From contig CAZGFX010000003.1 of assembly GCA_964524845.1 (NCBI GenBank), forward strand, positions 31,051-95,050: DNA of 64,000 nt. The letters are read 5' to 3'. This DNA is from an uncultured Gammaproteobacteria bacterium (GTDB taxonomy: Bacteria > Patescibacteriota > Patescibacteriia > CAZGFX01). A program made the position numbers and the translations under genes. A model generated the notes under the pieces. That model saw nothing but the letters and a program-made list of their open reading frames with translations. It was not told the DNA's origin and did no database searches. This document shows positions 15,581 to 43,703 of the stretch, one piece after another (position 1 is the first letter of the stretch; each line of letters begins with the position of its first letter).

Positions 15581-15716
15581 GAAGACAAGGTATTGGCGAT
15601 TACCTACTCTCCCAGGTCATAAGACCTAGTACCATCGGCCCGCAAGGACTTAACTGCCGGGTTCGGAATGTGACCGGGTGTACCCCCTCTGGAAGTATCA
15701 CCAATACTCTGTCTTC
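15581..15716 (-). rRNA. rrf: 5S rRNA
   Basis: Helix I pairing gaagacagagtattggtga / tcgccaataccttgtcttc, and an internal CCGAACCCGGCAGTTAAG loop-B/C region. Ends are approximate. Confidence 0.8.
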
Positions 15717-15819
15717 TATAATTTTTGTGATGAATAAAAATGAAATATCACAAACGCATTTTTCGCACGCATACTGAAAAAGAAAGAATGAATCGTATTA
15801 TATACTCATATATATGTGC

Positions 15820-18905
<3,086 letters not shown>

Positions 18906-19071
18906 ACATATACGAGTAGATACTTACTCACTTCTTTACTTTTACTAATTTGTATGCGCGCGAAAATTACGTTTGTAATTTTCGCACGTTTATTCAACTG
19001 TCAACGAACCCTTATGTTGAATGACAATCAACTTTTATATATTATTCAAAAAATTCAACAAAAGCTCTCAT

Positions 19072-19470: not shown

Positions 19471-20097
19471 ATGTACGAAATAATTGTCGTCTGCTCGAGC
19501 GCACTATTCTTTGCATCTGCTATAGATTATGTACGATGCGCATGGACCGAAAAAACAAAACCGGTTCCAGCAACATGGATACTTATGATGACAACTATGA
19601 GCTTGTCGTTCTGGATGTATTGGAATAGCCCGAACAAATCATGGACTGGAAACATTGGAGTTACAGCAGGATTAATGGCAAATTTTATAATTTTCAGTGG
19701 AGTTATTTTAAAGCACATTAAAAACAACACTCTTCATATCATGTTTGATACAGTACAAAAATGTTGTCTAGCCGGAGGATTTAGCACTGTAATTGTTTGG
19801 ATCATCACGAAAGATCCTTTGTTGTCATATGTTCTTGTACAAGGTATTGCTGTTATAGGGTATTTTGCGACAATAAAAAGATTATGGAGGGCACCATCAA
19901 GCACAGAACCGATGTTTTTGTGGATTGCAGTTGTATTTGCAAACTTACTTGCATTATATCCTGCATTCATAAAAGATGATGTATTTTCTTGGATATATCT
20001 TTCTCGTACAATACCATCAAGTATATTCATGGTATATCTCATAAAAAAAATAAATCGTCGTTCCATACAAAATAATTTTTCTTCAGAGTTGTCGTAA
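19471..20097 (+). CDS. Hypothetical six-helix membrane protein (tandem paralogue A)
   Basis: 208 aa, hydrophobic throughout. No family could be assigned with confidence. Confidence 0.55.
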   Translation: MYEIIVVCSSALFFASAIDYVRCAWTEKTKPVPATWILMMTTMSLSFWMYWNSPNKSWTGNIGVTAGLMANFIIFSGVILKHIKNNTLHIMFDTVQKCCLAGGFSTVIVWIITKDPLLSYVLVQGIAVIGYFATIKRLWRAPSSTEPMFLWIAVVFANLLALYPAFIKDDVFSWIYLSRTIPSSIFMVYLIKKINRRSIQNNFSSELS

Positions 20098-20179
20098 TAA
20101 AAGATTACGACACCTTTATAAGAAAAATAAACTAAAAACAAAAAAACACTCACCTATTTTTAGGTGAAAAGGAGGATTC

Positions 20180-20776
20180 ATGATTAGTCTCATATCAGGA
20201 ATTATTGTCTGCGCAAGTATAATTCCTTATGTAATCCGCACATATCAGAAAAAAATTGAGCCAAACATCGTATCGTGGTCGATATGGTCGATAATCGGAA
20301 TATCTTTGTTATTAAATTCTATCGCTGCAAAAACATTTGAAAATAATCCGTGGCCACTTGTTTTTAACACGATAAATCCAACTATAATTGCAATCATGGT
20401 CGCGATCAGATGGCATCGCGAACCATTATATCTGTATGAAAAAATATCCGGTATTATTGGAATCATTTCAATTGTGTTGTGGTTCATATTTCAAAACAAT
20501 CCATCACTTGCTGTTTTTTCACTAATACTGGCACTTGTTGCTGATATAGCGGCTGGTATCCCTACTTTTTTGTTTGTTATTAAAAAACCAGATAAAGAAC
20601 GTCCTTTCGTTTGGTTTATATTCGGAGTAGGATATGGTCTTTCTATATTTATACTTGGAAACGATTGGGTTGAATATCTTGTTCCGGGATATATGACACT
20701 TGCCGGAATTGCAATATCAATTCCTCCTATCATCTACAGAATAAAAAACTCAATCCCATTAAAAGAATGGGTTTGA
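20180..20776 (+). CDS. Hypothetical six-helix membrane protein (tandem paralogue B)
   Basis: 198 aa with similar topology. GGAGG RBS. Confidence 0.6.
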   Translation: MISLISGIIVCASIIPYVIRTYQKKIEPNIVSWSIWSIIGISLLLNSIAAKTFENNPWPLVFNTINPTIIAIMVAIRWHREPLYLYEKISGIIGIISIVLWFIFQNNPSLAVFSLILALVADIAAGIPTFLFVIKKPDKERPFVWFIFGVGYGLSIFILGNDWVEYLVPGYMTLAGIAISIPPIIYRIKNSIPLKEWV

Positions 20777-20838
20777 AAAATTTCACAAAACAAAAAAACA
20801 CCTCGCGAAATAGCTTGGTGTTTTTTAATTAGTATAAA

Positions 20839-21192
20839 TTATTTTTTATTTATTATTTCCGTCATCCATAAAACATTACCTTCGGAATCAATAAATTTAG
20901 TTATTAAGAAACTTTTTTGTTTTTTACATCGTTCTATAATTTTTACATTTTTTGATTCAAGTATTTCTGTTGCTTTTTTTATATTACGAACAGAAAAACC
21001 AATTCCAGCATGACTTTTGTTATTATTGTTTTTTATCTTCATCAAAGCAATATTAATTCCATTTGCACACGTCAGTTCGGACCATACCTTTGTATTATAA
21101 AGCTGTTTTAAGCCTAGTATATCTCTATAAAAAACGAGTGCTTTTTCCATATTGTGTACAGGAATACAGAAATGATTAATATGTTCAAACAT
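20839..21192 (-). CDS. VOC/glyoxalase-family protein
   Basis: N-terminal HxxIPVxNMEKALxFYRDILGL pattern typical of glyoxalase/bleomycin-resistance folds. Confidence 0.6.
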   Translation of the reverse strand: MFEHINHFCIPVHNMEKALVFYRDILGLKQLYNTKVWSELTCANGINIALMKIKNNNNKSHAGIGFSVRNIKKATEILESKNVKIIERCKKQKSFLITKFIDSEGNVLWMTEIINKK

Positions 21193-21257
21193 AATATTTT
21201 TAAATTATTACTTATATCTATATTTTATCATAAACCACAAAAAAACAATTGTTTTCT

Positions 21258-21340
21258 TCTCGTAATTCGTAATTCGTAATTCGTAATTATTATTTCTTCT
21301 CGTAATTCTCTCCTCTCGTAATTCGTAATTCGTAATTTCC
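21258..21340. repeat. Family-C CGTAATT(CG) microsatellite array
   Basis: cgtaattcgtaattcgtaattcgtaatt ... ctcgtaattcgtaattcgtaatt. Same motif as at 10536-10600. Confidence 0.8.
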
Positions 21341-22113
21341 TATTTGCTTCCCTTCACCACGACCTTCGTTCCAACATCGGCCCACGCATAGAGTTTTTCT
21401 ATTTCTCCATCTGGAACACGAACACAGCCATTTGTGCGCGGTTCTCCAACAATATTAATACCCAAAACACCGGTTGGCTTGATTGTTCTTCCGTGAATTC
21501 CATATTTTCCATTTGAAAAATCCATCCACCATGGCATCCATACTTTTCCGACTCGCGACCACGCTTTCGTAATCTTGTTGCGAACGGAGAATTCTCCCTT
21601 TGGTGTTTTCTGATCCGGTTTCCCTGTTGATACATAAAAAGAACCAACTTCTATATCACTGAGAAAATAAGTGAGTGTTTGTTTATCTGTATTTATAATA
21701 ATTTGTTTTTCGAGTTTTATTTCACCTTTGATTCGCGGATCGTATCCATTATCAATTTCTGTCTTATCATAATGTCCGTCGCCATCCGTATCCCGATTAA
21801 TCATTGATAATTTGTTTTTGAGTTCCATCGCATCCGAAAGCCCGTCACCATCAAAATCAGTTTCATCAAGACGCTTTCCGGCGCTATGTGGACTGTATCC
21901 ACTGGCAATTTCCACATTATCATCATATCCGTCACAATCCGTGTCTTTCTGATTCGGATTCGTTCCATAAACAGTTAACTCTATTTGATCGGATATCGTA
22001 TCGCCATCAGAATCTATTGAAACAACATCTTCTTGAGCAAAACAAAACACAGGTAATATACACAACAACCCGCATACAAATAAATTTTTAATCAAGAATT
22101 GGACCAACTTCAT
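21340..22113 (-). CDS. Secreted L,D-transpeptidase (YkuD domain) with thrombospondin type-3-like Ca-binding repeats
   Basis: Signal peptide. DxDxDG-type repeats (DSDGDTISD, DTDCDGYDD, DFDGDGLSD, DTDGDGHYD). C-terminal ...HGT...TNGCVRV catalytic Cys motif. Confidence 0.75.
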   Translation of the reverse strand: MKLVQFLIKNLFVCGLLCILPVFCFAQEDVVSIDSDGDTISDQIELTVYGTNPNQKDTDCDGYDDNVEIASGYSPHSAGKRLDETDFDGDGLSDAMELKNKLSMINRDTDGDGHYDKTEIDNGYDPRIKGEIKLEKQIIINTDKQTLTYFLSDIEVGSFYVSTGKPDQKTPKGEFSVRNKITKAWSRVGKVWMPWWMDFSNGKYGIHGRTIKPTGVLGINIVGEPRTNGCVRVPDGEIEKLYAWADVGTKVVVKGSK

Positions 22114-23113
22114 ATCGTTCTAATGTTCGAGGAGAAATGTTTTTAATCGGACCGGATTGATATTTTTTAAGCACCTCCGGCGAAGGAATGTATCGTAAAA
22201 CATCTTTTTCTATCATATATATTCGCTTTGTCTCCGTGTTACGAACAAGCATACCGCTTTGTATGGATCGTTCGTTAACGATAGGATTATATCCACTTGC
22301 AATCTCAGCACCATCCGAATATCCATCGTTATCCGTATCTGCAACAAATAAGTTTGTTTTGTGTTTCAGCTCTTCTTTTTTTGTTAAACCATCCTTATCG
22401 CCATCTGTATCTACGGATTTCGAAAGTTTGTTTGTTGTAAACAGCACAACCGGACTTCCTGTCTTTGTCTTTTTCGGATGCACATAATTACGAAGAGAAT
22501 TCATAATCACAGTGTATGAATATACATAATTCTTACCGCGGCGCGTGCCAGGTTCCTGTGTAATAAACTCCTGTTTTGTGTCATCATATCCTGAAATGAC
22601 GAACACATGATAATCCGGTCCTCCGTTTCGAAAGTTTGGGTTTTTGAGATCCTTGCCATGCGCTAGCGCTATAACTGGTCGACCTTCGTCAATTTCTTTT
22701 TTTATATCATCAAGCGTAGGCTTTTCTTTTATAATCGTCTCGAAAGAGAAAAAATTGCTTGCGAGCATATCTATATCTTTTGCATCGGTATCCTCATAAT
22801 ATCCTAGAACATTTTTTTGTATATCAACAATTGAAAGAATATCACGCGCCGCCGTATCCACATCAAGTGCGTTCCCAGTATAAAAATGTTCCACCATGAC
22901 AAGAGTCGCCTCCTCACACGCCTCATGCCATGGGGCTGACCAGTCTCCTTTTGGCGCTTGTACAGTAAAAGGAACCGGTAGGTTTTTCGGCTTGGAAATG
23001 ACTTTTTCTTTTTGTTCAGATGGCTTTGTTGGAATAACTACATTGGTCGCCTTCGTATAGTTTCCATACAAAAAAAACACAGGAAAAACAATAATGAAAA
23101 CAAGATATTTCAT
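22088..23113 (-). CDS. Secreted C39-like (papain-fold) peptidase-domain protein with TSP3-like repeats
   Basis: WHEACEEA Cys and DYHVFVISGYDD His in the expected order. DTDGDKDG and DTDNDGYSDG repeats. Overlaps the downstream LDT gene by 26 bp. Confidence 0.55.
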   Translation of the reverse strand: MKYLVFIIVFPVFFLYGNYTKATNVVIPTKPSEQKEKVISKPKNLPVPFTVQAPKGDWSAPWHEACEEATLVMVEHFYTGNALDVDTAARDILSIVDIQKNVLGYYEDTDAKDIDMLASNFFSFETIIKEKPTLDDIKKEIDEGRPVIALAHGKDLKNPNFRNGGPDYHVFVISGYDDTKQEFITQEPGTRRGKNYVYSYTVIMNSLRNYVHPKKTKTGSPVVLFTTNKLSKSVDTDGDKDGLTKKEELKHKTNLFVADTDNDGYSDGAEIASGYNPIVNERSIQSGMLVRNTETKRIYMIEKDVLRYIPSPEVLKKYQSGPIKNISPRTLERYEVGPILD

Positions 23114-23191
23114 ACACTAAGTATATCAAAACATTAGAAAACAAAAAAGGAACACACAACACAATGTATTCCTTAAAATATTGTTTTGTAA

Positions 23192-23734
23192 TTATTGTAT
23201 CTGAAGAGTTTCTAACATCTTCATATGCGCATCATCAGATGCATCGAAATAAATTTCGTAATTATAATTTGATCCAATAACCAAATAAATATCAAGTTTG
23301 TTCTCCGTTCCTCCTGCAGTACCCAAAAACTGATATGCGACATGTCCTGCTATTGTTGTTTTCTTCTCGCTCAAAATTTTGGAAATAACAGATCCATCTT
23401 CCTGTTTTCCTTGAGATTCATAATATTTTTTGTAATCATCGAGTTTCATATGGTGCGCATATATCATAAGCGGTCTATGCTGTCCCTCAAATCCTTCAAA
23501 AAAGAAAAATATACGGTCTTTTCCATTGCTTTCTGAAACTCGTGAACCACACTTGTTAATTGAAAACTTAAAATCAGCGCTCGTATACAACTGATCACTC
23601 GTGCATGAAACTTTTTTCAAACTCTCATCAATAGGTTTTGGATCGGTGTTCGTATCAACTGGTTTATCCGTATTAAAAAGAGAGCACGACGCAAGAAACA
23701 CGGAAAGAAACGAGAATAAAAATATTTTTTTCAT
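23192..23734 (-). CDS. Hypothetical lipoprotein
   Basis: Start reset to MKKIFLFSFLSVFLASC, which has a lipobox. A TTGCAA-17-TATTAT promoter lies upstream. Confidence 0.55.
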   Translation of the reverse strand: MKKIFLFSFLSVFLASCSLFNTDKPVDTNTDPKPIDESLKKVSCTSDQLYTSADFKFSINKCGSRVSESNGKDRIFFFFEGFEGQHRPLMIYAHHMKLDDYKKYYESQGKQEDGSVISKILSEKKTTIAGHVAYQFLGTAGGTENKLDIYLVIGSNYNYEIYFDASDDAHMKMLETLQIQ

Positions 23735-23785
23735 ATGATTATAATGATAATACGAAAAAAACACCTTTTTTGCAAATAAAAAACA

Positions 23786-23818
23786 ACTCTTAAAAACTGA
23801 GTTGTGTTTACATAACAA
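23786..23818 (-). terminator. Intrinsic terminator ending the 16S/tRNA-Ile transcription unit
   Basis: acaactc...gagttgt hairpin followed by ttttttattt on the minus strand. Confidence 0.5.
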
Positions 23819-23916
23819 AATGAAAAACAAAAGATAGTCTGCCATCCGTAGCGCGAAGAGTGAATTGGTGGATTTCAGTGGCCCCGCCACGAGTGAGAAG
23901 CGAAGCGACGAACGAG

Positions 23917-23993
23917 TGGTGGGCGTACCAAGAATCGAACTTGGGACCTCAACATTATCAGTGTTGCGCTCTAACCAGCTGAGCTATACGCCC
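23917..23993 (-). tRNA. tRNA-Ile (GAT)
   Basis: GGGCGTATAGCTCAGCTGGTTAGAGC...CTGATAA anticodon loop...GGTTCGATTC...CCA. Confidence 0.9.
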
Positions 23994-24624: not shown

Positions 24625-26122
<1,498 letters not shown>

Positions 26123-26275
26123 CAAAACATCTGCCGCGAAAAAAATCGCGAAAGATATCAAATTTTGGTTTATAAAGGAATTGGGACCGTAATATCTCAA
26201 ACCAAGATATTGACGGTCTGGTTATTATATTCTGCTGTCAACGTACCAAATTGACCTCTTACGAAGTCGTGTGTG

Positions 26276-35606: not shown

Positions 35607-38270
35607 TTATTCCGCCATCTTCTCTGCGTCGCGAAGTGCGAGAGAGATAAGTTGAGATGTTCCATCCGTACCCATTGTAACTCCGTACAGAGAACTTGCC
35701 GCGTGCATCACAGCTCTATTATGTGTAATACAAATAAATTGTGTGTTTGAAACTAGGTGCTGAAGAATATCAGAAAAACGATCTGAATTCGCCTCATCGA
35801 GCGCCGCATCAACCTCATCAAGTATAACAAATGGCGGTGGATTTGTGGCTATAATAGCACAAATAAGCGCGATAGAAGTCATCGTCTTCTCACCCCCTGA
35901 AAGAACTGATATGTTCATGATCTTTTTTCCAGGAGGCGTCGCCACAATCTCGATGCCCATACGAGAAAGCTTCGATTCTTTTTCAACTAAAGACTTTTTC
36001 TCTTCTGTTTGCTCCTCATCTCCCGTTGATGCGGCGCTCTCAGCCTCCTCGCCAACAACAATTTCTTCTTCTTTCTTTTCCTCAATTTCAACAAGTTTCA
36101 AATGAGCCTTTCCACCATTAAATAACTGTCGGAAATAAAGAGAAAAACTTTCATTAATACGTTTGAAGTTTTCATTAAACTTTTTCTCAATTATAACATC
36201 AAGCTCGCGAACAATGGCCTCAAGGTGTCCGAGAGATGTATTAAGATCTTCTGACTGTGTTTTCAAAAACGTATAACGCTCGGATACTTCTGTGAATTCT
36301 TTCGTAACTTCGGTATCAATACCACCAATATGTTGCAAACGCGCCTTTGTTTTTTGTATTTGATGTTTTAGCTCATCAACAGAAAGATGTGTTTCTTTCA
36401 TTTCAATATTAAAAGAATCCATTTCTTCTGGTAAACACATCTCTTGCTTTATTTCTCTGAGAAGATCTTCTTTGCGTTGTTCAAGTCTGGCTACCTCTAT
36501 TTTTATTTCGTTTGTATTAGATACGGCTTTATTAAATTCATTGGTAAGATTCTTCAAGTCTTCTTGGAGGGTAAATATTTTTTCTCTTTTTCTGTCTTCT
36601 TCTGCATTAAGCTCATCAATTTCCTTACGTTTTGACAACAATTGAATATCAATCTCCTCTATTTGTTTAGTGATATGATCACGATCACGTTGAAGCCCAG
36701 CAATAGCTTCGGTCTGATTCTCCGGTGTAATTTGGGATGCTTTAAGCTCCATTTCTGAACGCTCGAGTGCGCTTCTAGCTTCTGCGAGTCCCGTTTCAGA
36801 CTCAGAAAATTTATTTTGCAAAACCTCAACAGCAACACGTGCATCTGCAAATTTCACATTAAGCGAATCCTTTTCGTGATTTAATTTTTCAAAAACCCCA
36901 TTGAGTTCCGCCCTCTTATCTTCGTGCGATGTATCTGCATCAAGCATCTTATAAATCGTCTCGACCGAATCCAATATTAGACGTGCATCGTCTCTCAACA
37001 CAAAAAACTCATCTAGTGTCTCCGCTGATTCTATTCGAGACACAAAAGAAAATTGTAACTCTTTCACCTTTGCTGCGCTCTCTTTGATTTTCGGAAGTGT
37101 TACAATATTAGAAACAGCGCTTTCTGCGATTGAAATATGATGTTTTACCTCTGAAATTTGCGCATATATTTGATCCTTCATTTCTGTTAGTTCAGAAAGA
37201 TGGTTTTCCGCTTCTTTAAGTCGCGAGATAAAAGAAGAGTGTTCAAATTCTTTCGTACGAACACTTTCTTTCAAATCTTGTATTCTACGTTCAAGCCACC
37301 CGAGATCAGAAGCACCTTTCTGAACGTATTCGCTTTCGAGTTTTACCTGAATAATATTAAGGCTCTGTGCAAGTTGTGTACGAGATGTTTGAAGTCGTTG
37401 ATACTCGTTTTGAATTGTATCGAAAATATCTGATCTTTTTTTCTCTAAAGAAAATTCTTTTAAATGAGACTCTATTGTTTCAATGTCTTTTTTTATCAAT
37501 TCTTGCTCGTTTTGAGCTTTTATTGAAGCTTCAAAATTTTCAGTAAGTTGTTCACTAACGCCATTCCAAAGTATTGAATAATATGTTGTTTGAAGATCTA
37601 TTAATGTTTTTTCAATCATCTCTCTTTCCTCCAAACGCTTCACTTGTCTCGAAAGCATTTTCATACGAGGTTCAAGTTCAGCAAGCGTCAATGAAATTTG
37701 TTCAAGATTGTCACGAGTCAAACCAAGTTTACCTACGGTCTTGTCGCGTTTGATTTGATATTCTCGCACACCTGTCGCCTCATCAAAAAACACTCGTCTG
37801 TCATAAGAACTTGATTTCAAAACTCCATCAATCATTCCTTGTCCTACAATTCCATACGACTTTTGTCCCACGTTTGCACGAGCAAGTAGCAATATAACAT
37901 CGATGAGACGCACTTTTGAATTATTAATATAATATTCTCCTTCTCCTCCGCGAAACACACGACGAGTTAGAACAATCTCGCTGTATTCCATATCCTGTAA
38001 AGATCTGTCTTCGTTGTTTAAATACAATGACACCTCCGCCATATTAAGACGACCTTTTGATTCTGATCCAGCAAAAATAACGTCGTCTCCCTTTTTCGAA
38101 CGCAAAAGCTGCATACTCTGTTCTCCGAGCACCCAACGCATCGCATCAGCAATATTAGACTTACCGGATCCGTTTGGTCCAACCACTGCTGTAATATCTT
38201 TTTTGAACGTAAGAACGGTCTTTTTCGCGAAAGACTTAAATCCTTGAATTTCTATTTTTTGTAGATACAT
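35607..38270 (-). CDS. smc: SMC-family chromosome condensation ATPase (short, about 890 aa)
   Basis: IEIQGFKSF...VVGPNGSGKSNIADAMRWVLGEQS Walker A, coiled coils, C-terminal LSGGEK signature and DE Walker B. Confidence 0.85.
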   Translation of the reverse strand: MYLQKIEIQGFKSFAKKTVLTFKKDITAVVGPNGSGKSNIADAMRWVLGEQSMQLLRSKKGDDVIFAGSESKGRLNMAEVSLYLNNEDRSLQDMEYSEIVLTRRVFRGGEGEYYINNSKVRLIDVILLLARANVGQKSYGIVGQGMIDGVLKSSSYDRRVFFDEATGVREYQIKRDKTVGKLGLTRDNLEQISLTLAELEPRMKMLSRQVKRLEEREMIEKTLIDLQTTYYSILWNGVSEQLTENFEASIKAQNEQELIKKDIETIESHLKEFSLEKKRSDIFDTIQNEYQRLQTSRTQLAQSLNIIQVKLESEYVQKGASDLGWLERRIQDLKESVRTKEFEHSSFISRLKEAENHLSELTEMKDQIYAQISEVKHHISIAESAVSNIVTLPKIKESAAKVKELQFSFVSRIESAETLDEFFVLRDDARLILDSVETIYKMLDADTSHEDKRAELNGVFEKLNHEKDSLNVKFADARVAVEVLQNKFSESETGLAEARSALERSEMELKASQITPENQTEAIAGLQRDRDHITKQIEEIDIQLLSKRKEIDELNAEEDRKREKIFTLQEDLKNLTNEFNKAVSNTNEIKIEVARLEQRKEDLLREIKQEMCLPEEMDSFNIEMKETHLSVDELKHQIQKTKARLQHIGGIDTEVTKEFTEVSERYTFLKTQSEDLNTSLGHLEAIVRELDVIIEKKFNENFKRINESFSLYFRQLFNGGKAHLKLVEIEEKKEEEIVVGEEAESAASTGDEEQTEEKKSLVEKESKLSRMGIEIVATPPGKKIMNISVLSGGEKTMTSIALICAIIATNPPPFVILDEVDAALDEANSDRFSDILQHLVSNTQFICITHNRAVMHAASSLYGVTMGTDGTSQLISLALRDAEKMAE

Positions 38271-38384
38271 TAGCCAAAAATTACAACACCGATACTTTAA
38301 CACGTATTTTGTTAAATTTCTATACCAACGTGGGGATTGTTATTAATAAACAAAAAAGAGATTTAACAAAAACCTCTTTTTTGC

Positions 38385-38556: not shown

Positions 38557-39309
38557 TTATAACCACCCTTTCTTAACAAGTCCTTTGCGAGCGGCTTCGA
38601 CTTGTGCGTCTTGCTTGCTCGATCCCTCTCCTTCGGCAAGTAGTTCATCGGCTAAATATATTCCTACAATAAAATGTTTTTTGTGATCTGGACCTGTTTC
38701 AGAAAGCACCTTATAAGAAGGTGTTACACCAATTTTGTCTTGTGCCGCCTCTTGAAATAAACTTTTTGGATCAAGATACGATTTTTCTTCAAGAATATTC
38801 GAGAGATGTACAAGTATATGCATTTTTATGAATTCCTGACACGGACGATATCCCTGGTCGAGATACAATCCACCTATAATCGCTTCCATCGCATCAGCCA
38901 TAATATATTGACGAGCTTTTGAATTTGAATCCTTGGCCTCGCCTTTACTGAGATACAGATGTGGTTCCACATCTAGTTTTGTCGCAACCTCCGCGAGCAT
39001 GTTTGCATTAACAAGTGCGGCTCTCCAGTTTGTAAGTTCTCCTTCCGAATTCGGATAATTATGATAAAGATATTCGGTAATAACGAGTTCGAGTACGGCA
39101 TCACCTAAAAATTCGAGACGCTCATTGTGGTTGAGTTCGAATCCTGGGTGCTCATTAATATATGAGCGATGCACAAGTGCTTGGCGCAATAAATCTTTGT
39201 TTTTGAAAACAACTTTTAAGTTATTCTCTAGTAATATAATATCTTGCATACATGTGGTTGCATTAATGTTTTCTACTGATCTTTTCTTCTTTTTGTTTCG
39301 CATTTTCAT
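38557..39309 (-). CDS. rnc: Ribonuclease III
   Basis: ERLEFLGDAVL signature plus a dsRBD-like C-terminus. The true start may be the internal Met at 39249. Confidence 0.85.
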   Translation of the reverse strand: MKMRNKKKKRSVENINATTCMQDIILLENNLKVVFKNKDLLRQALVHRSYINEHPGFELNHNERLEFLGDAVLELVITEYLYHNYPNSEGELTNWRAALVNANMLAEVATKLDVEPHLYLSKGEAKDSNSKARQYIMADAMEAIIGGLYLDQGYRPCQEFIKMHILVHLSNILEEKSYLDPKSLFQEAAQDKIGVTPSYKVLSETGPDHKKHFIVGIYLADELLAEGEGSSKQDAQVEAARKGLVKKGWL

Positions 39310-40198
39310 CCGCAGGGTGTGTTTCTACTTTGAACCCAAGTCTTCTTAGACCATCGCGAAAAATATCTTTTGTATTTTCATATCCCAAAAGTCCAAGTGC
39401 CGCACCGGCATCAAACCAACGCGCATCCTGTAATTCTGGCTCTTTTGGAATTGTGAGTTTTACATCTGTTGCCTCAATGAGATAATAATGGACTGTTTTT
39501 GGTATTGGGGCTTTGTTCGGTTCATTAACAATAATCGAAATTGTTCCCAATTTTTCACGTACAACGAGGTTTTTCAAACCAACCTCTTCACCTATTTCGC
39601 GTTGAGCCGCATCTTCCAAGTCTTCGCCCTCGTTCATTTTTCCCTTCGGAAACGTCCATCGTCCTATCGCGTCTTTAATGAGCACAAATTTATATCCATC
39701 TGAATCTTTGTGATAAACCATTCCTCCTGCAGAAATCTGTCTCTCTCCTCCGTCCGAAAGTATTTTACGTATTTCGATTCCACCTTTTGTTTCTATATTT
39801 TTCAAAAGAGATCCCAAAACACCGTTCACAAATTTACTCGATGAAGGTGAACCAAATGTTTTCGCTAGTTCGATCGCTTCATTAATCGCAACTTTTGGTG
39901 GAATATCGTGAACATAGCGCAACTCATATACACCAATACGAAGTACGTTTCGATCTACGTTTGATATATGATCGATTGGCCACGCCGGTGCATACTGTGC
40001 AATTAAAGAATCAATTTCTACACGGTGCTCCAAAACTCCTTTGAGAAGGTTTTTAATAAATCCATTATCCCGATATCCGACCGCAAATTCACGAACATTG
40101 CGATCAAGAAGTATCTGGGCATCTACTTCAAAATTATTAAAATCACACTCAAACAAAGTTTGAAGAACCAAAGAACGAGCAAGGTGCCTATTTGACAT
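39263..40198 (-). CDS. NusB-like N-terminal domain fused to a C-terminal Nudix hydrolase domain
   Basis: N-terminus SLVLQTLFECDF...NAIELAKTFG is NusB-like. C-terminus GKMNEGEDLEDAAQREIGEEVGL is a Nudix box (GX5EX7REUXEEXGU). Confidence 0.7.
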   Translation of the reverse strand: MSNRHLARSLVLQTLFECDFNNFEVDAQILLDRNVREFAVGYRDNGFIKNLLKGVLEHRVEIDSLIAQYAPAWPIDHISNVDRNVLRIGVYELRYVHDIPPKVAINEAIELAKTFGSPSSSKFVNGVLGSLLKNIETKGGIEIRKILSDGGERQISAGGMVYHKDSDGYKFVLIKDAIGRWTFPKGKMNEGEDLEDAAQREIGEEVGLKNLVVREKLGTISIIVNEPNKAPIPKTVHYYLIEATDVKLTIPKEPELQDARWFDAGAALGLLGYENTKDIFRDGLRRLGFKVETHPADENAKQKEEKISRKH

Positions 40199-40293: not shown

Positions 40294-40491
40294 TTACTTG
40301 TTGGTATTGAGATTCGCTTTGACGTTTACCTTAACGTCTTTTTTGTAGTATCCGCACGCAGAACACGCATGATGAGGTAGTGTTGATGTTCCGCATTGCG
40401 AACATATGTTAACGGAAACAGTTTCAAGCGCATGATGACCTCGACGAGCTCGAGTTCTTCGTTTTGAATATCGTTTTGACGGAAGACCCAT
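40294..40491 (-). CDS. rpmF: 50S ribosomal protein L32
   Basis: Basic N-terminus and a CxxC...CxxC zinc ribbon (CSQCG...CSACGYY). Confidence 0.75.
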   Translation of the reverse strand: MGLPSKRYSKRRTRARRGHHALETVSVNICSQCGTSTLPHHACSACGYYKKDVKVNVKANLNTNK

Positions 40492-40845
40492 ATACTAAGA
40501 TCATTACTGATTAATCTGATGCTATGTGTATATTTTTATATAAAAACACACATCTGCACCGCAACTATATACGTTATTTCGGTCTTTGTAAAGCCTAAAA
40601 AACGCCAAAGTGTTTGAAAAAATATGTTTTTTTATAAAATCATATTAAAAGTGCATAAACTATGGACAAAGTGTGGATAATATGTGATTATAATTAAATT
40701 AAAATAAACAGTTATTTGGCTAAGGTAAGACGATAAATCGTATTTTTCTTATTTTTAACATCTTCTTTGAAATTGACATTTTCTTTTTATGATGCTAACA
40801 TAAACATGCTCGTTAAAAAGGAATTCTGATACGTGCTTTTATATG

Positions 40846-41057
40846 TGTGTTGACGACAAGCATGGAAGTTTTTCTCTAAGTACATCCGGCTCAGGCTTGA
40901 TGTCGCTAGAGAAAAGTTTTCTTCAACACACATATGAGTGCGTGTTTCATAAGTAAAGCAGCTTAGGAAGTGTGTTGACGACAAGCATGGAAGTTTTTCT
41001 CTAAGTACATCCGGCTCAGGCTTGATGTCGCTAGAGAAAAGTTTTCTTCAACACACC
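40846..41057. repeat. Two 86-bp palindromic MITE-like copies (TIR GTGTGTTGA...TCAACACAC) separated by 38 bp
   Basis: 40846-40931 and 40970-41055 are near-identical. Each is a long imperfect hairpin with 9-bp terminal inverted repeats. Confidence 0.85.
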
Positions 41058-41085
41058 TCCCAGGCTGTTTTTTTGTTTTACAATA

Positions 41086-41402
41086 AATTGAAGCGAGCCG
41101 AAGTGCTCGCATCAAATTGGATGAGACATCTTCCTGACATCCGTCAGGACAGGCGCTTTCGTGCTCGATGTGACAAGCTCCATAAAGCGATAGCGTGCGG
41201 GGTATGTAGAGATATTTTTGGATGAAAAGGATAAGCGACTTGTTCGAGAGAACATAAAAATATAAATCATGAAGCGAGCCGAAGTGCTCGCATCAAATTG
41301 GATGAGACATTTTCCTGACATCCGTCAGGACAGGCGCTTTCGTGCTCGATGCGACAATGTTGGTCGAGGTGACAAGTTCCGCAAAGCGATAGCGTGCGGG
41401 GT
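41086..41402. repeat. Two roughly 120-bp direct repeats (gaagcgagccgaagtgctcgcatcaaattggatgagaca...gcgatagcgtgcgggg)
   Basis: Copies at 41086-41205 and 41270-41402. The second carries a 21-nt insertion resembling family B (gtcgaggtgacaag). Confidence 0.85.
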
Positions 41403-41410
41403 GTTAATAT

Positions 41411-41575
41411 TGTCATGCTGAACCTTTAGTCCTGAGTTCATCTCAGGATCTGCGCCCTTTCAGCATCTACCGTGTAATTTTTAACTACATTGTCATGCTG
41501 AACCTTTAGTCCTGAGTTCATCTCAGGATCTGCGCCCTTTCAGCATCTGCTGTGTGACTTTTGATAATATGAGTA
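41411..41575. repeat. Two tandem family-A palindromic elements
   Basis: Copies at 41411-41490 and 41491-41575. They match 15195-15275 at about 90% identity. Confidence 0.85.
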
Positions 41576-41812
41576 GATCCTGAAACAGGTACATAGATCC
41601 TGAAAGGAATACATAGATCCTGAAATAAATTCAGGATGACAAGGTCAGTTCAGAATGACACAGGCACATTGTATCAAGGAAGATTCTGAAACGAGTTCAG
41701 AATGACACAGGCACATTGTATCAAGGAAGATTCTGAAACAGATATATAGATCCTGAAAGGAATACACAGATCCTGAAATAAATTCAGGATGACATTGTTC
41801 AGGATGGTGGTG
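41575..41812. repeat. GATCCTGAAA 20-mer arrays flanking two 45-bp tandem copies (gttcagaatgacacaggcacattgtatcaaggaagattctgaaac)
   Basis: 20-mers at 41581-41640 and 41746-41800. 45-mers at 41648-41692 and 41695-41739. Confidence 0.85.
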
Positions 41813-41816
41813 CAAA

Positions 41817-43703
41817 TTACTGTGACAAAGCACCCGAAGAATCATTGGTATTTGATAACCCTGGGTTGTTGTTCTCTCCATTTTCATCAACAGATATCAC
41901 ATCTGTAGAAACAGTTGGTGCATTTGGATCTTTTCCTCTCATGCATATCGCGGGCCATGCTTTATAATTACTGAAAAAGGTTTCTTTTTCTTCGTGTCCA
42001 TCAGAATATTTTACAACATAATCAAAAGATGCCTTGACTCCTTTATGAGCCCTCTCTGTACACTTCTCTTCTCCAAATTTTAACTCATCTGTTTCCACAT
42101 ATTGAACTGGGCCTGGGTCAGTCCACCCCCATACAGACGGTGTTGTTCTATATGCTGTTCGCCCATCTTTTGTTCCCCAAAAATCAAAAAATACATTTGT
42201 TCCCTCAACACGTCCACTTATTAATATATAATTACCTGTATCATTTAAAAATCTTAAATCTGGTTTCGGATAATATATTGTGGCATCAACCCCCGGAAGC
42301 CCATCTTCGAGATAATAAGTAACATTATACGAGTGGTTTCTTCGCTCAAGAATTTTGAGTCCTGATGAAAGCGCGGCTCGAAAAACAGTTGTTCCAATCT
42401 GACATAGTCCACCACCATATTCTTTCTGTGTTTTATTTCCTTTTATAACCAACTCTGGTAAATATCCTTGTTCCGCAGTCGTACTACCAAGAAGCGCTAT
42501 AAGAGAAAACTCCTCGTTCGGAGCAAGAAGTGTTCCATCAACCGTATGAACACCTATTTTTATATTATGAATACGATTTGCTGGTGATCCTGCAAAATTT
42601 GATTCACCAGTTCCAACAACCTCTGTAATACCTAATGTATTAACATCTTTGGTGTGTATTTTTGGCAAAGCCTCTTTCACAATAAGTGAAACTGAATTTG
42701 TACGAGTATTAAACAAGGACTCTGTGATCGACTCAACTAAGTTGTCCATATCAATTTCTCGTCCGTTTCTTGAAGGAATAAACTCCTTAACCTTATTATC
42801 TTTTATTTCAAGTTTGGCATCCTGTGGAGCACGCTCAATTACAGAACGCATTTCTTTAATAGATTCGTATAACTTTTCTTTCGATATGTTTAGAGCCGGT
42901 TTTTTTGTTTCTTCATTAAAAGACAGAACTATCCATTTGATATATTCTTTATAAAAGAACTTCCATTTTTGCTTCTCATATATTAAAGAAATTGCTGGGA
43001 GTACTGATTTTAGTTCATCAAAAACAGTTAGAAGCGGGGACGCATCGCTTTCAGAAAAACGAGGATCAGTATTTTTTTTGATCAAGTTGATCGGTGTTAT
43101 TGAAAAAGAAGAAACCATTGAACGAGTGTCTATTAAAGCCGCGTCCAGATCAAACTCGATTCCTTTTTGAGCCCGTGTTATTTCATATGAACCGTCTTCG
43201 TGCCACAAGAGTTCAGGCTCTGTTCCTTTTTGAACAAGTGTTTCGAGACTTTCTTCCATTGTCATGCGCCACAAACTATCATTAATTGAATATATAAAAT
43301 TTGTTTTAATCGGAAAAATCATATGATTTAGACGTTCCCACATGGTGCCTGTTCTACCTGTTTCATATGCAAGAAGAACTGTTTTTTGAATATCAACATC
43401 AACAATTTCCTGAGCAAGCGCTGGATCGTCTGTTAATATTCTTGATGGAATGTTTATAGGAGAATGCCCGTCAATTAAATATGTAAATCCTTTTGCAAGT
43501 GCTTCTTCTGTTTTTTCAGTCAAAAGTCTTTCCGCAGTCTCACTGCTCAAGCCACCAACGGCATATCCATCGACCGAAACATTTGGAAATATACGTCCTT
43601 CATACTGATATATATATAGGAAAACAACTAGAGATACAACAACAAGACACCCACACATTATAATGAGAGCATCGATAAAATATCTGACAAGTCGTTGAAT
43701 CAT
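41817..43703 (-). CDS. VanW-domain protein with an N-terminal membrane anchor
   Basis: ...EYGGGLCQIGTTVFRAALSSGLKILERRNHSY... matches the VanW conserved core. Confidence 0.7.
   Translation of the reverse strand: MIQRLVRYFIDALIIMCGCLVVVSLVVFLYIYQYEGRIFPNVSVDGYAVGGLSSETAERLLTEKTEEALAKGFTYLIDGHSPINIPSRILTDDPALAQEIVDVDIQKTVLLAYETGRTGTMWERLNHMIFPIKTNFIYSINDSLWRMTMEESLETLVQKGTEPELLWHEDGSYEITRAQKGIEFDLDAALIDTRSMVSSFSITPINLIKKNTDPRFSESDASPLLTVFDELKSVLPAISLIYEKQKWKFFYKEYIKWIVLSFNEETKKPALNISKEKLYESIKEMRSVIERAPQDAKLEIKDNKVKEFIPSRNGREIDMDNLVESITESLFNTRTNSVSLIVKEALPKIHTKDVNTLGITEVVGTGESNFAGSPANRIHNIKIGVHTVDGTLLAPNEEFSLIALLGSTTAEQGYLPELVIKGNKTQKEYGGGLCQIGTTVFRAALSSGLKILERRNHSYNVTYYLEDGLPGVDATIYYPKPDLRFLNDTGNYILISGRVEGTNVFFDFWGTKDGRTAYRTTPSVWGWTDPGPVQYVETDELKFGEEKCTERAHKGVKASFDYVVKYSDGHEEKETFFSNYKAWPAICMRGKDPNAPTVSTDVISVDENGENNNPGLSNTNDSSGALSQ

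Follow-up and report, generated by a model that had tools for sequence, protein, structure and literature searches.

What would a Nudix hydrolase be doing on the end of NusB, the transcription antitermination factor, directly upstream of the gene for RNase III? The question is raised by one gene, written nusB::nudix here, in a stretch of 64,000 nucleotides from contig CAZGFX010000003.1 of an uncultured bacterium (GenBank assembly GCA_964524845.1, positions 31,051 to 95,050; hereafter the window, whose coordinates are counted from its first letter). We found that the NusB-Nudix fusion is real and widely conserved in the ultra-small Patescibacteria (the candidate phyla radiation, CPR), and we weigh a tentative explanation, to which we give a probability of roughly 40%, in which the NusB-Nudix module binds boxA-bearing ribosomal RNA (rRNA) leaders and the Nudix part processes their 5′ ends, coupled to RNase III. 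The gene and its parts are as follows.

39263..40198, minus strand: nusB::nudix coding sequence, 311 amino acids (aa) plus stop, from the list of open reading frames (ORFs), with Pfam NusB and NUDIX domains and an identical protein in an independent assembly
39785..40198, minus strand: NusB domain, aa 1-138, seven helices (TIGR01951, alignment to solved NusB, Foldseek, invariant boxA-reading residues)
39740..39784, minus strand: inter-domain tether, aa 139-153 (both AlphaFold runs give aa 139-151 a predicted local distance difference test score, pLDDT, of less than 50)
39338..39739, minus strand: Nudix hydrolase domain, aa 154-287, NUDT2/Ap4A-hydrolase-like (Pfam NUDIX, PDB sequence match 3i7u, Foldseek)
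39575..39643, minus strand: Nudix box G186-L208, GKMNEGEDLEDAAQREIGEEVGL (motif scan, conservation in relatives)
39266..39337, minus strand: C-terminal tail, aa 288-311, specific to this genome (alignment to 15 relatives, pLDDT below 50)

The ORF begins with ATG, has no internal stop over its 311 aa, and carries a NusB domain at aa 7-132 (Pfam, E 3.8e-36, 124.8 bits against a cut-off of 23.1) and a NUDIX domain at aa 156-267 (E 8.4e-17), as a first-pass annotation of the window had described when it reported a single NusB-Nudix ORF upstream of RNase III. Such an ORF could in principle come from an assembly or frameshift error that joins two genes, which we now consider vanishingly improbable. 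A Logan contig that was assembled independently (SRR12133403) codes for the identical 311-aa protein, and when relatives were sought, as the same annotation had suggested, both Pfam domains were present in all 120 of the best matches in a collection of 5.8 billion proteins (the relatives referred to below), with lengths of 277-311 aa, nearly all 285-305. At the level of loci, we examined the best 80 of at least 596 matching loci in GTDB species-representative genomes; the Nudix part was included in all 80, and one continuous ORF spanned both domains in 78 of them, or in 81 of 83 when three further loci were added (an ORF-level check). A frameshift-merged pair is excluded for practical purposes by the identical Logan protein together with the continuous ORF in these 81 independent loci.

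The carriers are Patescibacteria, with the named ones falling in Komeili-, Uhr-, Nomura-, Lloyd-, Giovannoni-, Zambryski-, Ryan-, and Niyogibacteria, Paceibacterota, and Minisyncoccia. The window itself looks patescibacterial, with a GC content of 31-44%, unlinked 16S and 23S genes, and a nearest fused relative that is just 55-56% identical to its protein. In public annotation the named fused proteins are called "transcription antitermination factor NusB", and our literature searches on the NusB-Nudix fusion, with Patescibacteria, CPR, and the Cell paper on the saccharibacterium Southlakia included, found no paper on the fusion or on a nusB-nudix-rnc triad (rnc being the RNase III gene). Both domains are well known and the fused proteins are already in public databases, while the fusion itself is apparently undescribed.

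Is the N-terminal half still a NusB? By sequence and fold, residues 1-138 qualify as a genuine one, in keeping with the NusB-like domain first suggested. They pass the NCBIfam equivalog cut-off for nusB (TIGR01951, 128.3 bits against 88.35), align over their full length with the NusB proteins of Thermotoga maritima, Mycobacterium tuberculosis, and Escherichia coli, and are modelled by AlphaFold as seven helices at a pLDDT of about 90. Foldseek placed this model on T. maritima NusB 1tzt (template modelling score, TM, 0.85; root-mean-square deviation, rmsd, 1.5), on E. coli NusB of the NusB-S10 complex 3imq (TM 0.91, rmsd 1.8), and on 1eyv (TM 0.82). In E. coli NusB, F122 on alpha7 and E81 in the alpha4-alpha5 region read U8 of boxA (PMC3177189). 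The corresponding residues here, F123 and D82, are invariant in the 120 relatives, and the Asp is a conservative change shared with NusB of T. maritima and M. tuberculosis; NusB function therefore appears to be kept. What sets the protein apart from NusB of E. coli, T. maritima, M. tuberculosis, and Aquifex aeolicus, with which it shares the full-length match, the equivalog score, and the U8-reading residues, is its 170-aa C-terminal extension with an enzyme domain and its position beside rnc, whereas the contexts known from model bacteria are ribH-nusB and nusB-folD. A NusB-fold domain fused to an rRNA-directed enzyme does have a precedent in RsmB/Sun, the 16S rRNA methyltransferase that makes 5-methylcytosine 967 (m5C967), and the NusB half here also matches the N-terminal region of RsmB models. 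The N-domain of RsmB is a diverged paralogue and its catalytic domain a methyltransferase, however, while here NusB proper is joined to a Nudix hydrolase.

Between the halves runs a flexible stretch. AlphaFold gave a pLDDT of 83.9 with a 16-sequence alignment and 86.2 with a 120-sequence alignment, with a predicted TM score (pTM) of 0.47-0.48 in both; because aa 139-151 scored below 50 and the pTM was so low, the two domains are tethered rather than packed. In the Aquifex complex, the path of boxA leads from the NusB N-terminus to F122 on helix alpha7, which contacts U8, and S128, further along alpha7, touches C6 (PMC3177189). Since F122 meets U8 and S128 meets C6, the C-terminal end of alpha7 points to the 5′ side of the RNA, which is where the tether begins. 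The stretch from K133 to S156 is exactly 19 aa long in 98 of the 120 relatives, and a GEK motif within the linker is at least 90% conserved among them.

Not every lineage keeps the two domains in one chain. In two loci, L043 and L079, nusB ends in TAA and is followed by 4-6 in-frame codons, a separate Nudix gene of 163-166 aa, and rnc (junctions at 6481-6504 of L043 and 6502-6519 of L079); an AAGGAAG stands ahead of the separate Nudix start in L043. With nusB and nudix in the same frame and a single TAA between them, fused and split forms are interconvertible by loss or gain of one stop codon. Gene calls on further contigs showed NusB, NUDIX, and RNase III as separate genes in L206, L207, L208, L209, and L212, and in part in L210. 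A search with the L079 Nudix protein returned 4,755 relatives, the best 120 of which are all Nudix-only proteins of about 160-171 aa with at least 81% identity to the query, the named ones being Saccharimonadia/Saccharibacteria. For the window Nudix domain, an exhaustive representative search found that the nearest standalone relatives are themselves nusB-adjacent genes (P0127 and P0128 at ranks 7-8, P0134 being another), and of two non-patescibacterial homologues (one is from Omnitrophota) neither had nusB or rnc nearby. Because Saccharimonadia and some other lineages keep adjacent separate genes in the same order, the conserved unit is the triad nusB-nudix-rnc, of which the fusion is one form, the commonest among the recovered loci; since several lineages keep nusB and nudix separate, the covalent link is not obligatory.

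The split-form Nudix proteins have a K/R-rich N-terminal tail of 25-35 aa (L208 3426-4386; L209 113-1064; L206 4381-5501). In the Saccharimonadia-type loci L079 and L206, NusB ends in a Lys-rich tail; in L208 (EPEQEQE) and L209 (EPEEDHQ) that tail is acidic. Such tails might mediate non-covalent NusB-Nudix pairing or RNA binding. In a neighbour-joining tree of Nudix domains the fused ones fell into a near-exclusive clade (21 fusions among 31 tips, with at least one other tip, P0134, of split type). No single fused-plus-split clade was recovered in the tree once Saccharimonadia sequences were added, and we make no claim about how many times the genes fused or separated.

These data bear on the idea that the halves are functionally unrelated, joined by the chance loss of a stop codon between operon neighbours and kept because the fusion is harmless. 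A single mutation could indeed fuse the genes of L043 and L079, and the linker is disordered with no predicted interface; yet the gene pair is kept across deep patescibacterial lineages, whether fused or not, and a neutral junction sits poorly with the near-constant linker length and the conserved GEK motif, so that we regard this explanation as improbable.

If the pairing is under selection, what does the Nudix half do? Its box, GKMNEGEDLEDAAQREIGEEVGL, fits the motif GX5EX7REUXEEXGU and is the sole such match in the six frames of the window, in line with the complete domain and intact box originally proposed. K185, G186, E201, E204, and E205 are kept in 120/120 relatives (R200 in 116/120), and because of these invariant residues catalysis appears to be retained and the domain to be active. 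Judged by sequence and structural model, it is closest to the NUDT2/Ap4A-hydrolase type (Ap4A being diadenosine tetraphosphate). The top PDB sequence match is Aquifex Ap4A hydrolase 3i7u (E 3.7e-13, full length), with Thermus Ndx1 1vc8 (E 1.1e-10) and human NUDT2 3u53 (E 2.2e-8) among the further matches. In Foldseek, 3i7u again came first (TM 0.89, rmsd 1.4, 32% identity) and Ndx1 reached TM 0.88, with TM scores of 0.72-0.89 to characterised ApnA hydrolases. Over sequence and structure together, the next-nearest after 3i7u were Thermus Ndx1, Chlamydia CT771, human NUDT2, and mycobacterial MutT1/Rv2985 (its Nudix domain). The match to Aquifex aq_158 (3i7u), Ndx1, NUDT2, and CT771 (4ilq) runs end to end, with SAGG, W-T/S-F-P-K-G, the Nudix box, a KTV.YYL strand, and a C-terminal Y..K.IF helix in common. 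Those enzymes are free-standing proteins of 126-155 aa, whereas this domain is tethered to NusB, and the His of their PKGH is Lys in the window protein, although it is His in 89 of the 120 relatives. A Tyr about 16-18 residues past the Nudix box is a proposed marker of ApnA hydrolases; the window protein has no Tyr 16-18 residues past L208, the relatives' consensus Tyr lies at about +9 (GYLG), and Aquifex aq_158 has HYWY at +12 to +15.

Other family assignments were tried and rejected: the RppH models (NCBIfam NF001934-NF001938) gave 22-26 bits against cut-offs of 116-259, with the Nudix box alone aligning, YtkD/BsRppH (TIGR02705) gave 20 bits against 154.4, the NudC NAD(+) diphosphatase (NF001299) 16.7 against 158, and the MutT 8-oxo-dGTPase (TIGR00586) 22.9 against 97.9. 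The first-pass annotation had pointed to RppH and NAD-cap decapping enzymes among the Nudix proteins; this domain is a member of neither family, the RppH, NudC, and YtkD scores being far under their cut-offs. With RppH of the E. coli NudH, B. subtilis YtkD, and Bdellovibrio types the domain shares the Nudix fold and catalytic box, and if it acts on RNA 5′ ends as proposed, the reaction would be of the same type, but the similarity is limited to the Nudix box (E about 8e-4 over 35 residues). A looser parallel is the mRNA decapping enzyme Dcp2, in which a helical N-terminal regulatory domain and a flexible hinge precede a Nudix domain acting on RNA 5′ ends. Foldseek aligned 219-276 columns across both domains at an rmsd of 12-17 Å and 14-18% identity. 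The likeness is one of architecture only; the helical part of Dcp2 is not known to adopt the NusB fold. Other architectures in the same Nudix subfamily include fusion to an N-terminal RNase H domain (among P0267, P0240, and P0264), another nucleic-acid-linked arrangement, and fusions to PDZ domains, an EamA transporter, or a second Nudix domain.

One possible role is that of a hydrolase of free nucleotides (Ap4A/Np4N, or another nucleoside polyphosphate such as (p)ppGpp or damaged nucleoside triphosphates), which its attachment to NusB would confine to sites of rRNA transcription. Rather than touch RNA ends, it might for instance rid the surroundings of RNA polymerase of alarmones or non-canonical initiating nucleotides. 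In favour of this role, Ap4A/Ap6A hydrolases and the diadenosine polyphosphatase MutT1/Rv2985 of mycobacteria match best in sequence and structure, and the catalytic residues are invariant. The domain is also acidic, as NUDT2-type enzymes are, and has no basic surface. Against it, a conserved slot between nusB and rnc across the phylum is unexpected for a house-cleaning hydrolase, and the homologues outside Patescibacteria lack such linkage. Genetics adds a further argument. In Table S1 of the transposon sequencing (Tn-seq) study of Southlakia epibionticum, SEML1_0594 (NusB), SEML1_0593 (NUDIX, 519 nt), and SEML1_0592 (RNase III) are adjacent and each scored GD/ES/ES, as did RNase J (SEML1_0095), while the other three Nudix genes that we looked up, SEML1_0092, SEML1_0518, and SEML1_0568, scored NE/NE/NE, SEML1_0518 and SEML1_0568 being the ones annotated as RNA pyrophosphohydrolase (PMC10633639). 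From synteny and length, SEML1_0593 is probably the ortholog of the Nudix gene here, and it is the sole essential-scoring gene among the four, which speaks against simple nucleotide clearance. Altogether we hold a free-nucleotide role to be somewhat unlikely, though a serious contender.

Alternatively, the Nudix part could serve the rRNA antitermination complex of Patescibacteria mainly as a structural component, with catalysis dispensable there. The precedent is SuhB, an inositol monophosphatase that acts as a transcription factor in rRNA synthesis: a protein with an enzyme fold that joins the Nus factors and boxA on the rRNA operons of E. coli (PMC6614801). SuhB differs in having the inositol monophosphatase fold, outside the Nudix superfamily, and in not being fused to NusB. 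The Southlakia annotation tables contain no SuhB or inositol monophosphatase string (PMC10633639). Within Saccharimonadia the Nudix protein roughly equals its partners in conservation (L079 against L206: Nudix 82.5%, NusB 80%, RNase III 82%). Yet the metal-binding glutamates are invariant in 120/120 relatives, arguing for selection on chemistry, and AlphaFold predicted no confident interface with NusB, and we find a purely structural role quite improbable.

The explanation that we prefer, 5′-end processing of NusB-bound rRNA leaders, calls for NusB targets in those leaders. The rRNA genes and candidate elements of the window are:

24625-26123, minus strand: 16S rRNA gene, with its own promoter-like site at 26303-26276
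23917-23993: tRNA-Ile
15810-18909, minus strand: 23S rRNA gene, with its own promoter-like site
15591-15705: 5S rRNA gene
26235..26246, minus strand: GTACGTTGACAG, candidate boxA-like element of the 16S leader (some 25 nt past the predicted start)
18998..19009, minus strand: GTTCGTTGACAG, candidate boxA-like element of the 23S leader (some 57 nt past the predicted start)

The 16S and tRNA-Ile genes are set apart from the 23S and 5S genes by about 5 kb with ORFs (19471-23890), the 16S-23S distance being about 5.7 kb. The 23S match covers 3100 nt against a 2925-nt model, and the surplus of about 175 nt may be an insertion. The window contains just two copies of the 9-mer CGTTGACAG, at 26243 and 19006, each of them in an rRNA leader and on the rRNA strand. 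The extended leader motifs, GTACGTTGACAGCAGAATA and GTTCGTTGACAGTTGAATA, resemble GAACCTTAACAATTGAATA in the 16S leader of a metagenomic contig (L141) whose 16S is the closest found to that of the window (79.6% identity), and we take them to resemble boxA consensus sequences of other bacteria as well. A metagenome scan anchored on the 16S 5′ end returned 120 matches, mostly distant (about 73-80% identity among the 25 best), in which the commonest sequence after the anchor was CTTAACACATGC, which is cyanobacterial or plastid-like. Only L141 and L135 (78.8%) looked patescibacterial, so that conservation of the boxA-like elements rests on very few sequences; among the 80 nusB-centred loci, none contained rRNA genes. 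We offer the elements as candidate NusB targets, on modest evidence from sequence.

With these pieces in hand, the proposed mechanism can be laid out. On sequence and structural model, the gene encodes the main patescibacterial form of NusB, extended past alpha7 by a flexible tether of about 15-20 residues and a NUDT2-type Nudix domain. The NusB half, together with S10, would bind the boxA-like element in the short 16S and 23S leaders and thereby hold the Nudix domain near the 5′ part of the nascent leader, because the tether leaves the C-terminal end of alpha7, the helix that runs to the 5′ side of the RNA. There the Nudix domain would hydrolyse the 5′ polyphosphate of the leader (triphosphate or Np4N-type cap) and leave a monophosphate, and RNase III, the co-encoded partner, would cut the processing stems. 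The released NusB-bound leader, now 5′-monophosphorylated, would become a substrate for RNase J, a 5′-monophosphate-dependent exonuclease, and the Nus factors could then be recycled. The chemistry has a precedent in NUDT2, which converts PPP-RNA to P-RNA for a 5′-3′ exonuclease (PMC8616924). The essential scores of the triad and of RNase J in Southlakia also count in favour of this mechanism, as does the fusion of the same Nudix subfamily to RNase H. By analogy, 5′-end processing on the rRNA antitermination complex, as first put forward from the sequence, is a plausible and reasonable hypothesis. Its fullest version would have an RNA 5′-end pyrophosphohydrolase or decapping enzyme built into the rRNA antitermination complex of Patescibacteria, as a fusion with NusB or from a gene next to it, that removes leader 5′-triphosphates or Np4N caps co-transcriptionally, coupled to RNase III cleavage and RNase J decay, and that is essential in these reduced genomes and lacks a counterpart in model bacteria; taken as a whole, we think that this version is unlikely to hold.

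Several points weigh against leader processing. On the side of the enzyme, the Nudix domain falls, by its sequence, outside the established bacterial RppH families, and substrate specificity is unreliable to read from Nudix sequences. Fused Nudix domains are acidic, with a median isoelectric point (pI) of 5.2 against 7.9 in standalone relatives, and nothing in this comparison pointed to an RNA-binding surface on the fused domain; no fixed inter-domain interface emerged from AlphaFold, even with 120 sequences (pTM 0.48). On the side of the RNA, the E. coli boxA consensus GCTCTTTAACAA, allowing up to 3 mismatches, gave 93 matches in the window against 97 expected and so was not enriched, which is why we compared the two leaders with each other, and a shared 9-mer between two 200-nt AT-rich leaders was reached in 411 of 2000 shuffles, about 20%. 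As for the genetics, the essentiality score of SEML1_0593 could stem from polarity on the essential downstream rnc, and genomes with the fusion may also carry a second, plain nusB.

The genes on either side are those that had been named from the sequence, rnc and rpmF, both confirmed by Pfam and both in a conserved order:

38557..39249 (or start at 39309), minus strand: rnc, RNase III, immediately downstream (Pfam Ribonuclease_3 and dsrm)
40294..40491, minus strand: rpmF, ribosomal protein L32, immediately upstream (Pfam Ribosomal_L32p)
35607-38303, minus strand: SMC, after rnc (ORF list)
40564..40592, minus strand: promoter-like site upstream of rpmF, TTTACA-17-TATAGT (consensus scan only)
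38350..38384, minus strand: terminator-like hairpin between rnc and smc (consensus scan only)

Across the 80 related loci rnc lies directly downstream in 78, smc follows in 64, and rpmF is upstream in at least 47 (by tblastn), so that the order rpmF - nusB::nudix - rnc - smc is strongly conserved. The genes can be tightly packed: in L202, rpmF ends 2 nt before nusB::nudix and the second gap in the triplet is 1 nt. In the window, rnc may start at 39249, 13 nt past the nusB::nudix stop, or at 39309, overlapping it, and the gene call on the identical Logan contig is a 230-aa rnc starting at 39249. The upstream in-frame ATG at 39309 is overlapped by the 24-aa C-terminal tail of nusB::nudix, which is lacking or much shorter in the 15 aligned relatives.

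Further upstream the loci vary. In L208 (2791-3422), YceD (DUF177) and then L32 precede the triad, and in L202 and L203 a VanW-domain protein lies upstream of L32. A 628-aa VanW-like ORF of the window (41817-43703, minus strand) occupies the same position and matches the corresponding ORF of L001 by tblastn. It is separated from rpmF by a 1.3-kb non-coding gap, against about 310 nt in the relative L202. Six pairs of duplicated 42-88-nt segments with 88-100% identity lie at 40800-41800, and several of these repeat units fold as long hairpins (z about -4.5 for an 87-nt unit, on either strand). The units gave no Rfam match, and they could be small mobile repeats, similar to miniature inverted-repeat transposable elements (MITE-like), or structured RNAs.

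NusB is usually treated as a small, purely RNA-binding adaptor, and proteins of 287-311 aa in which it is fused are publicly annotated as plain "NusB". Across a very large bacterial radiation, it is coupled instead, covalently or genetically, to an apparently active Nudix domain and to RNase III. This coupling suggests that transcribing or maturing rRNA involves an enzymatic reaction here that is not seen in model organisms. It also provides a concrete, testable candidate function for a Nudix gene with an essential score in Southlakia, the only patescibacterium open to genetic work. Should the substrate indeed be the 5′ end of the leader, Nus-factor antitermination, 5′-end chemistry (triphosphate or Np4N caps), and processing by RNase III and RNase J would be joined in one module.

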